Source of the DNA: Escherichia coli
Lineage (GTDB): Bacteria; Pseudomonadota; Gammaproteobacteria; Enterobacterales; Enterobacteriaceae
Reading direction: 5' to 3' (one strand)
Assembly (NCBI RefSeq): GCF_003019035.1
Contig: NZ_CP027448.1
Length of the DNA stretch: 64,000 nt
In this document: positions 26,501 to 31,586 of the stretch, piece by piece
Numbering within the stretch: the stretch's first letter is position 1
Layout of the letters: the number at the start of each line of letters is the position of its first letter
Position numbers: made by a program

Positions 26501-29500
26501 CAACTGGAAGTCCAGATACGGCGGCATGGAAACTTCTGATATTAAAAAAATAAAGGATCTTGAGGACGAGAACCGCCGTCTCAAACAGATGTTTGCTGAC
26601 CTGAGTCTGGAAAACCGGACTCAGTATCCGTCAGGCCTGCCGGAGTCTTAACCTGAGCAGAACGGTTTACCATTACCGCCCGGATACCACGCGTGATGAA
26701 CCCGTTATTACCGCCCTGCAGGCTGCGGCTGAGCGATACCCACGATACGGCTTTCCGAAGCTTTTCCAGATTCTGCGACGGCAAGGATACTCGTGGAATC
26801 ACAAAAGGCTCCACCGTATTTACTGTCTGCTGAAGCTGAATTTTCGCCGTAAGGGCAAACAGCGACTGCCGGTACGCAATCCCTCACCACTGGCTACGCC
26901 AGAAGCGCTGAACCAGAGCTGGTCTGTCGATTTTATGCATGATGCGCTGGCCTGTAGCCGTCGTTTTCGCACGTTCAATGTCGTTGATGACTTTAATCGC
27001 GAGGCGTTATCGATTGAAATCGATCTGAATCTGCCAGCTCTGCGAGTGGTCCGTGTACTTGACAGGATCGCGGCAAACCGAGATTATCCGGTCATGCTAC
27101 GCATGGATAATGGTCCAGAATTTATCTCTCTGGCGCTGGCTGAATGGGCAGAGATACACGCAGTAAATGGAGTTCATCCAGCCGGGTAAGCCGACGCAGA
27201 ACGCTTTCATTGAGCGTTTTAACAGGACATACCGTACAGAAATACTCGATTTTATCTGTTCAGAACGCTGAATGAAGTACGGGAAATTACGGAGAAATGG
27301 TTATCAGAATATAACTATGAACGCCCGCATGAATAACTGAACAATATGACACCGGAGGAATACCGACTTCACCATTATTTGGCCGGATTCTCAAAAAATG
27401 CATGGAACTAAAACGGGTCTATTTACAGTTCCGTCACGAGCGCTCGGAATTCGCAGTTACAGTGGACTCTCACCTGTGATAACGCTCTTTATAGCATAAC
27501 CGTTACGGGAGTTAGCTCCCGGTTTGGACTGATTTTTTAATACACGAGATAATGTGTCATCTCTGCATTGTGTGAAGCTTCAACACTTGGCTTTTTCAGC
27601 AGACGACTAAACTGACTTTGATGCTATATTGAACATATCTGTACTATATCCTGAGTGTACTGCCGGAATGACCTTCCAACCGTGTTGACGAACTCCTGCC
27701 TGGGAACGTAGTACTCACAACTAAATAAGTGTCAATACGGAGCTCCATTAAAGCTTATTATTTATTTTTATCCCATCAAAAATAATATATTTCAATGCAA
27801 TACTATCAATGATATACTTTTTATTACGTTATGTGGCAAAAAATTAATCATCAACATCTTAAAATATTACCATATATAATATTTTAACAATGACAACCCT
27901 GAATCTATAAGATATATCCAATACTGAATGGAATGGATAAATTATATTATTATAAAACATATTCTGTTATTTAATGTATATCACTTCCATCTGATACAGA
28001 TATAAGCTTTAGAAAAATTCCATTCCCATCCGCCAGACAGGATTCAAAAACATCTACCCCATAATGTTTCATAAGAAAATTCGCCACAACAGCTATAACG
28101 TGTAATCCGTCCGCAGGAGTCTTACATTCCATCATTAATCGCTCAATTATTCCGTTAACTGTATCATAGTTAACATCCATACATAGGTAATCTGCCCCTC
28201 CTCTGGGTAAATTATTAGCAGACATATATTTCTCCTTGTTGCAATATTATAAGTGATTTTTTAATATATACAATATATCACAATAATAATCATGTCCTCA
28301 AAAATATAATGGTATTTTTATTAATATGTATTCTTACAAATTTGTTATTACCCCTAACCGCTTCTATGAATTCACTCTTCCGTAACCTATTATTTTGGCT
28401 ATACAGTATCTCCTTCGTAGTAAAAGCCACTCCCGCTGTCCATCTGTAATATATTCCTCCCCCATCACAGCCAACCATCGTTCAGAAGCCCTGCGCCAGC
28501 ATCCTGCAACCTCAAGTTTCAAGGCAATCATATCCTCCACAGTCTCCATTGTTCTCTTCCGTGTACTCAAACTCACCTACCAGAATTTTATTTAATCGAA
28601 TCGGAATTAAAGAATTACCTGTTCCAGACTGAAATATTCATCCTGAAACAGCTTTGTCAGCCCGCTTAATTTGTTTCAGCCTGAGCCCCTCATTCTGGTC
28701 CATCATCAGCTCAATACAAACTCTTTACCACCCAGACAGGACAGGTCATGAACAATATATGACATTATGGAATACCCACTCTGAACATTAGCTCATACAG
28801 TAGTTATAAACAGCATGAGTTTCCGCGTTATAGATCCCGTTTTTACAGTCATACAAAAGGGACATTGTAAGTAAAAACCTCCAGTGATACTGTTATCCAT
28901 ATTGTATCGTCCTCATAGAGGAACTTATACCGTGAAACAAAACCTATAAAACTTGTACAATAGGGACTCATCCTCACGACCTTGCCATAGCCCATTTACT
29001 TCTAGCAATCCCGGATTAAAATTCATAATAAACTCTTCATCTTAGATAGCATATTAATAAAAAGGAAAATCTTAGTAAGTAACAACAAATCAGGTAACTG
29101 AAGGATTAATTCTACACCAGATTCCCTACATATCCATTCGCCAGACTATAACAGCCCCCCATATACAGTTGTCAAATGAACTGCTACCTAGCAGAAAGAC
29201 TCTGTGATATATAATATGTTTTGCACATATAGGATATGTGTATACATCCTGAACAATAAGGAAAACATCGCTTTTATCCAGACCATATCCAAAGCCAGCT
29301 GAAATAAAACAGCAGAATATTATTCTCTTCTGTTTGCACTAAATAAACAGCCCTCCTTAATTACAACCATACAAAAATATTACTCTCATTCGATAAGAAG
29401 GCAATTAAACATAAGTTACAATTGTGATAGATGCTGATCTTTTTAAGAGTATATAATGGAAGAAAAGAAAAAAAATTGAGATGCATCACAAAATAATCAA

Positions 29501-31586
29501 CAGTACATGAGCAGATACTGTAATTAATATACAGTGCACAATATGGAACATTGCTGAACTACATCATCCTCCACAAGGAAAGATCTGAAAAAAATCTATC
29601 CCGTGCTAATCACACCATCTATTATTCTACTGCCTATACCACAGGATACGTATTTTTATGCTATAAACTATACATCTAAAATATCAGAAATAAATCTGAT
29701 GTTTTTACATTTAACAAATCAGGCATTCTGTACAGAAATATATTATCATTTATTATTTTACTCTTAATGTATCTTATTACCACAAATAATAAGTAGTAAA
29801 AACATATAGCAGATATCTTTGCATAGACAAGAACTTACCTATTACCACTTCTATCCTGAATACCATACTGTTTTAACCACTGTAAGGGGGTGACTGAGTA
29901 ATATTTTCTGAAACTATGAATAAAATACGACAGGCTATTATATCCACAATCCTTGGCAATAACAAAGGTATTACAATTACCGCTTTTCATAAGACTTATC
30001 GCCTTTTTCATCCTTACTTCTGTGATTATCTGGCTGAATCCTGTACCTTCACTATGCAGTTTTCTTTTAAGCTGGCTAGCACTTATACATAAGACTGAAG
30101 CAACATCAGACAGATACCACTTCTTTGCTGGAGCTGCGGCAACAATGGCTTCAACGCGCAGTGAATAGTTATTCAGTCCATATGACAACACAGGTAGTAA
30201 CTGTTTTTGTTCATTAAGATAATCCAGCAATACAAATAATGCAGACTCATAAAGGTTAACATTTTTCTTTTGCTCCACAAGTGGCATCAGCGAGTTCAGA
30301 AAAGTACCATAAGTTTCCTTTCTAAAAAAATAATTTTTCCTGTCATGTATGCATAGAACATCAGCATCCCTGAGCCTAATATACAGATAGTCACTGATTA
30401 TATTACATGGTATATCAATAAACATAACACACCGCTCATCACCCATAATAAAATGCTGAACATCATTTCTTTTAATAAGTAGCACTTCATTCTTATTAAA
30501 ATCAATATATTCATTGTTAAACAAAATACAAAATGATCTTAATGTAATAGCAAAACAATATGGAAACATATAGTACAGGTGTTATTTATAAACATTCGTC
30601 GTTTTTAATATAGTTCAAATACTATTTTTATCACTATATTAAAAGGATTTAATCATTAGTAAAGTAACATAGCAAATATTCCAGTATACTTACATATAAG
30701 TACCATCACTTACCTTCATCCAGGATATTGTAAGCACACTATATTCATCTCCTTTTAGTACAATATTGATTCGTAATACATTCCTTCTTTCATGCGATAC
30801 GGCCATTTTTTGAGTATTTTCACTTGATTTTCTGATATGTTAATTTAAGTAAGATGCAGTACTTCAACTAAAAAATTTTATCAATCTTATCCAGCTTTTA
30901 TTGTTCCCATCAATGACTTAATTTTTAAATGGTAACAGATGAATGTTAAGATAACATTAAGATCCTATTAATAATATGGATATCTCCTTCCTATTGTGTT
31001 TTTGATCCTTACGAACAACAGTTCTCTATGTTTCAACCTTGGCATTAAGAATATCTGAGCACCATTTTATCATTTTATCTACAGTTCCACTAAATAAAGC
31101 AAGACGTACATACTGCATGTCATCCATACTACGCTGTTATACCTGCAGACATCTTTCATATTGCGCATTATTTTCGTGTACGAGGTGTTTTATGATGTTG
31201 CTGAGACCATTGCAACAGCAGAAACTCATGGACAGAGCGATTGCTACAACATTAAAAATGTGTTTCATATTCTTACTCATAAATCAGGCCTAACGAATCA
31301 TACTGATAATAAACATTATATAATTTTTTTGATAAAATTTTCATATATTAACAAAATCGGATAGTGTTATACCCCTTTCTGACACTGATATTTTCCCATA
31401 ATTTTCTTGTGTATTTTATATTCATCAACTGATATAAGCAATATGACCACTATTTCCCTCAGGGAAAACAAAGGCATAACGAAACTCTTGTCAGTGCATT
31501 AAGCAACTGTCTTGAACGTAAACGATTCGTCCCATTCTCCGTTATTTCTGAGCATCAGCATCGCGTTCAGGATTGTCAGCAGTTTA

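Follow-up and report, generated by a model that had tools for sequence, protein, structure and literature searches.

The AT-rich tract at 27400-31500 of the analysed window, a 64,000-nt stretch of Escherichia coli DNA, is best explained as a horizontally acquired regulatory islet of about 4.1 kb, mostly decayed and bracketed by IS66 fragments, on an IncF virulence plasmid of cattle E. coli. The AraC-family regulator at its centre would act in trans. We put the probability of this reading at roughly three in four. Judged by its sequence, the islet is ordinary plasmid decay around an intact GadW/YdeO-like regulator. The seemingly empty 4 kb consist of pseudogenes and are neither spacer DNA nor a lost pilus operon. 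The component features are collected in Table 1.

Table 1. Features of the islet and candidate target loci elsewhere in the window
Feature	Coordinates	Strand	Basis or remark
AIDA/TibA-like autotransporter with heptosyltransferase	20892-25609		candidate trans target
IS256-family transposase fragment, islet edge	27428..27617	.	RefSeq pseudogene; Pfam Transposase_mut E 0.0035
IS66-family fragment, left arm of inverted pair	27636..27757	.	matches annotated IS66 tnpC; weak Pfam DDE_Tnp_IS66_C match
orf84, orphan gene, 84 aa, islet end	27971..28225	-	strong Shine-Dalgarno AAGGAG
PerC-family gene	28290..28576	-	open frame 28364-28576: 70 aa from GTG, 61 aa from ATG at 28549
IbrB-like (ParB N-terminal domain protein) pseudogene	28628..28765	-	C-terminal ~50 codons left, frameshifted; tblastn aa 159-206
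IbrA-like (PAPS reductase/DUF3440) pseudogene	28771..29355	-	aa ~33-243 of 410, at least 8 in-frame stops; tblastn E 1e-10 to 2e-13
Spacer, no recognisable coding remnant	29356..29834	-	82-83% identical to 88% lineage (blastn vs L005)
AraC/XylS-family regulator, intact, 244 aa, GadW/YdeO/GadX-like	29835..30569	-	Pfam, NCBIfam, blastp vs K-12 proteins
YfdX-family pseudogene, upstream of regulator	30706..31280	-	signal peptide start MKHIFNVVAIAL kept, in-frame stops, deletions; tblastn
Putative promoter and leader region of former yfdX-araC unit, conserved	31281..31480	-	alignment with yfdX upstream regions of 81% and 77% lineages
IS66 transposase pseudogene pieces	31499-31880		next to right arm
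IS66-family fragment, right arm of inverted pair	31886..32007	.	122-nt inverted repeat I1, 83% complementary to left arm
SPATE	35339-39238		candidate trans target
Chaperone-usher cluster	49567-53878		candidate trans target

Composition and borders of the islet

The AT-richness attributed to this DNA is confirmed by a G+C content of 33.5% for 27400-31500, against 44.7% for the whole window. Values in 500-bp windows range from 26 to 40% between 27500 and 31499 and from 46 to 57% on either side. The islet lies between two inverted 122-nt IS66 fragments, and RefSeq calls transposase pseudogenes at the right border on the identical plasmid p1RM8082. The IS256 fragment at the opposite edge shares 82% identity with the IS256 remnant that follows perC on pMAR2. 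The exact islet is scarce, being present in 6 of 5426 complete E. coli genomes.

At the composition of the tract, a stop is expected about every 13 codons. The 244-codon frame of the regulator, with a probability of about 4e-9 per start, is therefore far longer than chance would produce, and a lack of ORFs above 60 codons is the expectation for non-coding or decayed DNA. The original prediction counted an AraC-family gene and one small ORF as the only convincing genes present. Both are real, the latter being orf84, but a third was overlooked, a PerC-family ORF (Pfam PerC E 1e-15). The ORF-free stretches, estimated at some 1.5 kb on either side of the regulator, are in fact shorter, with 1.26 kb towards lower coordinates (from 29834 to 28577) and 0.93 kb in the opposite direction. 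Plus-strand ORFs of 84 and 67 aa at 31039-31364 are mechanical and antisense to the YfdX-family pseudogene.

Regulatory signals are not enriched in the tract, where a promoter and terminator scan gave 28 promoter-like sites against 22.8 +/- 5.8 in shuffled sequence. Non-coding RNA in the flanks was rejected as a candidate, with no Rfam match at E <= 0.1 inside the islet. Pfam and tblastn found no match in the spacer downstream of the regulator. Neither a binding site nor a target of the regulator could be inferred, and no shared motif emerged.

Decayed coding sequence around the regulator

Translated searches of both flanks with related sequences uncovered a yfdX pseudogene upstream of the regulator and IbrA-like and IbrB-like pseudogenes downstream. 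The outcome that would have spoken against the original prediction, remnant-free flanks together with a dead regulator, is not what the tract presents. The intact 209-aa YfdX protein of a related locus, L014, aligns by tblastn over aa 1-135 to 31268-30897 and over aa 146-189 to 30868-30761 (E 2.5e-20). This relative matches the Pfam YfdX family at E 5.8e-38. No intact YfdX domain (PF10938) remains in the islet copy, where the alignment crosses stops and the six-frame scan returned no Pfam match. Identity between the islet and L014 is 41% for the YfdX pseudogene and 77% for the regulator. The 77% lineage carries an intact, signal-peptide-bearing yfdX of 190-209 aa about 158 bp upstream of its regulator. 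A frameshift interrupts the gene in the 81% lineage, the copy in this window is degenerate, and the 3' end of yfdX can be aligned in all lineages, even the Vir plasmids.

The yfdX leader is well conserved. When aligned with the 81% and 77% lineages, many columns are invariant over the ~170 bp ahead of the yfdX ATG, and a promoter-like site lies at 31344-31315. The region would act as a promoter. Its RNA has no stable predicted fold (z = +1.4). The conserved palindrome ATCAG-N-CTGAT before the yfdX start was rejected as an operator: the window has 3 copies where 0.94 would be expected, 9 of 100 shuffles reach that count, and the copies are not near adhesin genes.

The downstream remnants correspond to a known gene module. 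By blastn, the IbrA-like remnant matches annotated PAPS-reductase genes at 68-69% identity (E 3e-28), and the IbrB-like region retrieves paired ParB and PerC genes (67-70% identity, lowest E 6e-25). Little of IbrB is left and its protein-level matches are weak (E 0.04-1e-4), and its assignment depends mainly on DNA-level matches and synteny. Neither frame is intact; both are stop-ridden and undetected by Pfam. The PAPS reductase-ParB-PerC module, known from an EDL933 island and from related plasmids, is intact in EDL933, with the same gene order and strand as in the islet and 67-70% DNA similarity over the ParB 3' end and PerC. The islet differs in its heavily degraded ibrA and ibrB (30% amino acid identity, many stops) and frameshifted perC. 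Remnants of IbrA and IbrB follow the regulator in three lineages, namely this window, the 88% lineage, and pVir. In the 88% lineage, a 555-bp deletion takes out ibrB and perC and spares orf84. An intact ibrAB-like pair is found elsewhere in the window (58017-59884), with 93% and 91% identity to EDL933. The ibrAB genes of ECOR-9 are grouped with the EDL933 module as a known relative. IbrAB are said to activate eib genes, a finding attributed to Sandt and colleagues in 2002.

The PerC-family product belongs to PF06069 (58.2 bits against a gathering threshold of 22.6, residues 13-62). The match covers only profile positions 2-50 of 90, so that the product falls short of the full length of about 89-104 aa, and RefSeq labels the gene 'missing C-terminus'. 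Over aa 1-47 of the 89-aa EDL933 homologue, the ORF shows 70% identity. The C-terminal third of the gene has undergone a frameshift and runs on in degenerate form to 28290; the second frame reads SEFIEAVRGNNKFVRIH, against TEFREVAKAADATLRQM of the 96-aa relative P0016. Short PerC-like phage families of about 69 positions exist (phrog_10396), and a truncated PerC need not have lost function.

The remaining gene, orf84, is 89% identical at the amino acid level to its counterpart in the 88% lineage, with a dN/dS of 0.27. Among 1.84 billion representatives, the search returned only its own cluster, the second match being a low-complexity repeat protein. Pfam, NCBIfam, and PHROG gave no match, and the AlphaFold model is poor (pLDDT 57). 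An extended -10 promoter-like site lies beside the gene at 28301-28272.

A GadW/YdeO-like regulator under purifying selection

The AraC-family identity proposed for the central gene holds. Residues 157-234 of its product score above the curated Pfam cut-offs for HTH_18 (57.3 bits, cut-off 33.6, E 1.9e-15) and HTH_AraC (50.3 bits, cut-off 26.6, E 2.4e-13). The protein thus has the C-terminal DNA-binding domain of ~100 aa with two helix-turn-helix motifs that defines the AraC/XylS family. In the AlphaFold model (pLDDT 73), helices 135-235 superpose on the DNA-binding domains of GadX, MarA, and AraC, and the modelled domain matches GadX (3mkl) with a TM score of 0.94 at 39% identity.

The closest characterised relatives, as far as sequence comparison can tell, are the acid-resistance regulators GadW, YdeO, and GadX (30-36% identity). 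Against K-12 proteins, blastp aligns residues 11-234 with GadW 12-236 (30.6% over 235 aa) and residues 17-242 with YdeO 14-241 (32.5% over 234 aa). GadX aligns over the C-terminal part (36% over 153 aa). All three fall in the same size class (242-274 aa), and GadW and YdeO can be aligned with the regulator end to end. A multiple alignment reveals shared invariant positions in both domains. The regulator therefore joins a GadX/GadW/YdeO-like clade in the looser sense of full-length collinear alignment including the N-terminal domain, an assignment drawn from alignment. The NCBIfam scores lie far under the equivalog cut-offs for GadX (96 vs 500 bits), YdeO (92 vs 348), and HilD (96.8 vs 354), so the functions of these proteins cannot be transferred. 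By these comparisons, the regulator is a distant paralogue of GadX, GadW, and YdeO, not an orthologue. Unlike them, it is plasmid-borne, in an AT-rich IS-bracketed islet with no gad, hde, or evg genes nearby. The likeness extends to its ancestral partner, which is of the YfdX family. Chromosomal yfdX and ydeO are both strongly induced by mild acid (pH 5.8), and acid survival requires gadW (PMC10746267).

The regulator represents a small, conserved, unstudied AraC family carried by virulence plasmids of cattle E. coli; the CNF2/CDT-III Vir plasmids are among them, and there cnf2 adjoins one allele. The family comprises 12 protein clusters, with E. coli as the source wherever one is named. Complete alleles, at least six of them, are all 244 aa long and 66-88% identical. 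A dN/dS of 0.13-0.20 in 15 of 15 allele pairs (0.14 for the closest allele) is a measure of earlier constraint over the lineages rather than of current function in this plasmid. Constraint covers both domains and the first 28 codons. The 244-aa start appears correct over the 216-aa RefSeq call, and the ATG lacks a convincing Shine-Dalgarno sequence. The regulator has been retained in several lineages while the neighbouring genes decayed along different routes. Across the 12 clusters and 15 loci, no locus has all islet genes intact. A literature search returned nothing on this regulator, on pVir68 regulators, or on YfdX-AraC pairs.

Proposed history and role

The remnants, flanks, family, and selection are direct observations, and the steps that connect them are inferred. 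Reconstruction from relatives suggests an ancestral minus-strand order of yfdX-like, araC (GadW/YdeO-like), ibrA-like, ibrB-like, perC-like, and orf84. Decay in this plasmid has turned yfdX, ibrA, and ibrB into pseudogenes and cost perC its C-terminal third by frameshift, with the AraC gene and orf84 left intact. The regulator would be a working transcription factor of the small two-domain type, built from a beta-rich N-terminal domain, then a helical linker, then two helix-turn-helix motifs. Its transcription may start at the old, conserved yfdX promoter, close ahead of its own ATG, or at both places, and its binding sites would be AT-rich and lie close to the promoters it controls. In most lineages yfdX, its partner in cis, is dead, yet the regulator itself is constrained; its selected role would therefore lie in trans, and the sequence data make some such role likely. 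Judging by its relatives and its ancestral partner, promoters of the acid or envelope-stress type (gad/hde/yfdX-like) or plasmid virulence genes would be the likeliest targets, the acid or stress promoters being somewhat likelier than the adhesins of the window.

A bolder extension of this proposal is a long shot. It would make the family ruminant-E. coli-specific, outliving its own operon as a trans master switch for plasmid virulence genes, with cnf2, the immediate upstream neighbour on Vir plasmids, and the glycosylated AIDA-like adhesin of this window as candidates. Such a switch might couple to an acid or fatty-acid gut signal and serve as the PerA/AggR counterpart for bovine pathotypes. 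Should the regulator prove to control genes for toxins or adhesins, or to cross-talk with the acid-resistance network of the chromosome, it would offer a handle on plasmid switch-on in the ruminant gut. If it has no such control, the islet simply illustrates regulator retention during island decay.

Alternative explanations

One reading in the original prediction was a Rns/AggR-type regulator, stranded by the decay of a pilus or secretion operon. Its notion of a decayed operon is partly supported, right in kind and wrong in content: decayed genes do occur in the tract, but they are remnants of YfdX, IbrA, IbrB, and PerC, and no chaperone, usher, pilin, or secretion gene is among them. When 27400-31500 was scanned against Pfam in all six frames, the only matches were the AraC helix-turn-helix domain, PerC, and IS fragments, and these scans are also blind to the YfdX and IbrA remnants, which only close relatives expose. 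No fimbrial operon lies beside the regulator in any of six lineages of the family. Structural evidence speaks in favour of this reading, as the best full-length PDB fold matches of the model are Rns, CsvR, and ToxT (Foldseek E ~1e-9; full-length TM only 0.40). This ranking is biased, since full-length GadX, GadW, and YdeO structures are absent from the matches and only a 120-residue GadX chain is present. A PDB sequence search likewise lists Rns at E 3e-15. Rns, CsvR, AggR, and ToxT do share the two-domain architecture, and the regulator is likewise a plasmid- or island-borne AT-rich gene, but identity in structural alignments is 15-22% (20-22% for Rns and CsvR). The sequence match to Rns and CsvR is confined to residues 96-232, and AggR matches at 25.5% in the C-terminal half only (residues 98-238), against 31-32% full-length for GadW and YdeO. 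The regulator thus shows neither the sequence closeness nor the linkage to a fimbrial or adhesin operon that mark the Rns/AggR group. This explanation is hardly tenable and already largely refuted. Nearly as improbable is a virulence cassette in which the AraC and PerC-family proteins would turn on LEE or a pilus in the manner of PerA and PerC from the EPEC EAF plasmid. The layout is suggestive: as in perABC (bfpTVW) of pMAR2, AraC and PerC genes share one strand in an IS-flanked AT-rich islet on an IncF virulence plasmid, and an IS256-family remnant follows in both. LEE1 is activated by PerC and Pch proteins (PMC6094958). However, the PerA match is limited to the DNA-binding domain (32% over 125 aa), PerB has no counterpart, and PerC is just 33-35% identical, frameshifted, and truncated in the islet. 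The AraC-PerC gap holds ~1.26 kb of pseudogenes here and 0.5 kb with perB in per. The PerC gene is tied to the ibrAB remnants as in the EDL933 module, not in one operon with the AraC gene, and the 88% lineage lost perC and kept the regulator. Homology to perABC was rejected: PerB is unrelated to IbrA and IbrB, PerA and PerC are distant relatives only, and the islet does not constitute a perABC operon.

The regulator could also be a relic, an open frame no longer expressed or useful here and merely awaiting a disabling mutation. Its wholly decaying surroundings, the rarity of the exact islet, the poor ribosome-binding site, and the different RefSeq start fit such a view. Against it, the 244-codon frame stays open in 33% G+C DNA, the complete alleles are equal in length with low dN/dS in both domains, and the gene survives beside differently decayed neighbours, which leaves the relic explanation decidedly improbable. 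Action in trans on the adhesin genes of the window, the other suggestion originally made, is unlikely, if a little less so. Constraint on a regulator with dead neighbours makes some trans target likely, and the heptosyltransferase/adhesin pair lies on the same (minus) strand, 2.3 kb beyond orf84. Adhesins are often under AraC-family virulence regulators. On the other hand, this adhesin is missing from plasmids that carry other lineages of the regulator (a PhoPQ-related gene takes its place in L005, and pVir carries cnf2 and cdt), and a search for a shared motif was negative. The regulators of the tib locus in ETEC H10407 are moreover of CaiF/GrlA and LuxR type, not AraC. The tibDBCA analogy, with TibB as an AraC-like protein, was accordingly rejected, since at that locus TibD is CaiF/GrlA-type and TibB LuxR-type, both unrelated to the regulator.

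Annotation of the islet

The unannotated yfdX and ibrA remnants could be marked as pseudogenes of their families. The same applies to the ibrB fragment, which RefSeq carries at 28607-28724 as a frameshifted fragment labelled only as a hypothetical-protein pseudogene.

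Composition and surroundings of the islet

The AT-rich islet (about 4.1 kb, 27400-31500) is genuine, and its explanation is an ordinary one, IS-mediated mosaic decay. It holds the remains of a locus with the reconstructed minus-strand order yfdX, araC, ibrA, ibrB, perC and orf84, of which only the AraC-family regulator gene and orf84, an orphan ORF of 84 codons, are whole today. G+C content falls to 26-40% across 27500-31499, against 46-57% on both sides (overall 33.5% for the islet and 44.7% for the window). At the islet's composition a stop is expected about every 13 codons. 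The 244-codon frame of the regulator is therefore far beyond chance, and the scarcity of other long ORFs is normal for non-coding or decayed DNA. Its AraC-type DNA-binding domain scores above the Pfam cut-offs, bearing out the original prediction of such a regulator within an AT-rich tract. That prediction recognized only one further small ORF as convincing and thereby overlooked a PerC-family ORF; the ORF-free stretches, put at about 1.5 kb on each side, actually measure 1.26 kb and 0.93 kb.

Of 5426 complete E. coli genomes, only 6 have the tract. Over its full length it is matched at 99.1-99.9% identity by six IncF plasmids (140-164 kb) whose E. coli hosts came from cattle or farms (in the UK, the USA and elsewhere). 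The identical plasmid p1RM8082 carries RefSeq-annotated pseudogene fragments of IS3, IS256, and IS66 elements on either side of the islet, which is bracketed by two IS66-type fragments. The IS256-family fragment at the islet end is 82% identical to positions 19526-19716 of the EPEC EAF plasmid pMAR2 (L018), where the remnant follows perC at the corresponding place and with the same orientation as in the window. This likeness is probably a coincidence of a common IS. Identification of the islet as a per operon was rejected on comparison with perABC of pMAR2.

Features of the islet and of the rest of the window
Feature	Position (strand)	Evidence and remarks
968-aa ORF	101-3007 (+)	No Pfam family at E <= 1e-5
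AIDA/TibA-like autotransporter (1176 aa) and strand-loop-strand O-heptosyltransferase (391 aa)	20892-25609 (-)	
Low-G+C stretch	25500-26000	33% G+C
Rfam isrN match (Hfq-binding sRNA)	26583-26710 (-)	86 bits, E 5e-18, full model length; within an IS3-family transposase remnant that is frameshifted and lies just beyond the islet
IS256-family fragment	27428-27617	
IS66-type fragments	27636-27757 and 31886-32007	122 nt, mutually inverted
orf84	27971-28225 (-)	
PerC-family ORF	28364-28576	N-terminal 47 residues, 70% identity; tblastn, Pfam E 1e-15
IbrB-like tail	28765-28628	tblastn with module proteins
IbrA-like remnant	29355-28771	aa ~33-243, ~30% identity, at least 8 stops; tblastn E 1e-10 to 2e-13
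AraC-family regulator	29835-30569 (-)	244 aa
yfdX remnant	31268-30761	In-frame stops; tblastn with intact protein, E 2.5e-20
Palindrome	31281-31310 (-)	
Chaperone-usher cluster	49567-53878	
DUF5462 protein	53387-53878 (+)	E 4e-66
Intact IbrA-like (412 aa) and IbrB-like (~214 aa) pair	58017-59884 (+)	93% and 91% identical to EDL933 proteins

A decayed locus around the regulator

The inside of the islet became readable through relatives of the regulator family, whose lineages are named here by amino acid identity to the window's copy. In the 77% lineage, the regulator is preceded on its own strand, at a distance of about 158 bp, by an intact YfdX-family gene (190-209 aa, with a signal peptide; Pfam E 5.8e-38). 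The yfdX gene is frameshifted in the 81% lineage and a remnant in the window, and its last codons are still alignable in every lineage, the 65-67% alleles of the Vir plasmids included. The approximately 170 bp preceding the yfdX start codon are well conserved. Right before that codon, an imperfect palindrome (TTATCAGGTATGATTC...CCTGAT) is kept in all lineages in the alignment of regions upstream of yfdX, and is retained in the window despite the dead gene. The palindrome could be an operator; it shows no enrichment elsewhere in the window.

By sensitive blastn, the DNA 3' of the regulator matches annotated pairs or triplets of PAPS reductase, ParB-like, and PerC-family genes at 67-70% identity. 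Intact copies of this module exist in an island of EDL933 and on a plasmid of buffalo E. coli. The translated search proposed for the flanks, run as tblastn with the relatives' proteins, recovered remnants of yfdX and of the IbrA-like (PAPS reductase/DUF3440) and IbrB-like (ParB-like) genes. The PerC frame stops early, its C-terminal segment being found in another frame (SEFIEAVRGNNKFVRIH versus TEFREVAKAADATLRQM of a 96-aa relative), and RefSeq marks the gene on p1RM8082 as lacking its C-terminus. Since the regulator is followed by ibrA and ibrB remnants on Vir plasmids and in the 88% lineage as well, the linkage is old and the decay independent. A 555-bp deletion in the 88% lineage takes out ibrB and perC and spares orf84. 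The flanks were thus correctly suspected of holding decayed genes, but none of these is fimbrial or secretory: a six-frame Pfam scan of both strands returned no such domains, only the AraC HTH, PerC, and IS fragments. Elsewhere in the window stands an intact IbrA-like and IbrB-like pair, with no PerC gene after it, so the module that has died next to araC survives on the plasmid in a live copy.

A strong Shine-Dalgarno sequence and an extended -10 site precede the small ORF orf84, and its counterpart in the 88% lineage is 89% identical (dN/dS 0.27). No relative or family was detected in any search and its structure model is poor; orf84 is probably a genuine orphan.

The regulator and its relatives

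Members of the regulator family form 12 clusters among 5.8 billion proteins, and those named by source are all from E. coli. The complete alleles, at 88, 81, 77, 74, and 66% identity, are all 244 aa long, and the literature search found no published work on the protein. Pairwise dN/dS values of 0.13-0.20 among six alleles show past purifying selection. Constraint is seen separately in the N-terminal domain, in the DNA-binding domain, and in the first 28 codons. Low dN/dS in both domains argues for a functional protein, and the first 28 codons, by their conservation and their dN/dS, support the ATG start at 30569 over the internal GTG start of the RefSeq call on p1RM8082 (L002 5436-6086; 216 aa).

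End-to-end alignment gives 30.6% identity to GadW and 32.5% to YdeO. GadX shares 36% over the C-terminal 153 residues, AggR and VirF 25-27% over the C-terminal half, and PerA 32% in the DNA-binding domain only. HilD, GadX, and YdeO are the top NCBIfam matches, all far under the equivalog cut-offs, and GadX or YdeO orthology was rejected. In the AlphaFold model (pLDDT 73), a helical linker joins a beta-rich N-terminal domain to a DNA-binding domain of seven helices, which superposes on GadX with a TM of 0.94. Over its full length the model matches only the structures of Rns, CsvR, and ToxT (E ~1e-9, TM 0.40, 15-22% identity). The earlier label of Rns/AggR type is therefore fair for architecture but not for family, as the sequence lies nearer GadW and YdeO.

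The 65-67% allele class occurs on 17 PLSDB plasmids. On the CNF2/CDT-III Vir plasmids KS-NP019_P1 (L003 3972-9735) and pUTAK-5-1 (L004 3917-9735), it shares a strand with cnf2 and follows that gene at a distance of about 2 kb, an interval that contains an IS66 fragment and a 3' remnant of yfdX.

Possible targets and the remaining plasmid cargo

The regulator is probably an active transcription factor now acting in trans. Its relatives of the GadW/YdeO/GadX type run the acid-resistance network of E. coli. These are its nearest characterised relatives, and a pH of 5.8 induces chromosomal yfdX together with ydeO (PMC10746267); both points lead, as a first guess, to a regulon of the acid or envelope-stress type, or to cross-talk with such a regulon. 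Plasmid virulence genes would be the more interesting alternative, the candidates being the AIDA-like adhesin 2.3 kb further on the same strand and, on Vir plasmids, cnf2 directly upstream. No target motif of the regulator was derivable. The islet holds an uncharacterised AraC-family member that merits a simple experimental test.

The window's cargo is typical of a virulence plasmid: KatP, a SPATE autotransporter, a GGDEF protein, and a chaperone-usher cluster, together with the AIDA/TibA-like adhesin with its heptosyltransferase and the ibrAB-like pair. In ETEC H10407 (L021 7187-12822), tibDB-type regulators lie upstream of tibCA, whereas the window's adhesin pair lacks them and has TnpB and IS3 debris, along with the low-G+C stretch of 25500-26000, in their place. 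Kinship of the islet regulator to the tibDB regulators was rejected. In the chaperone-usher cluster, the first ORF (180 aa) has no Pfam match, and the last encodes the DUF5462 protein.
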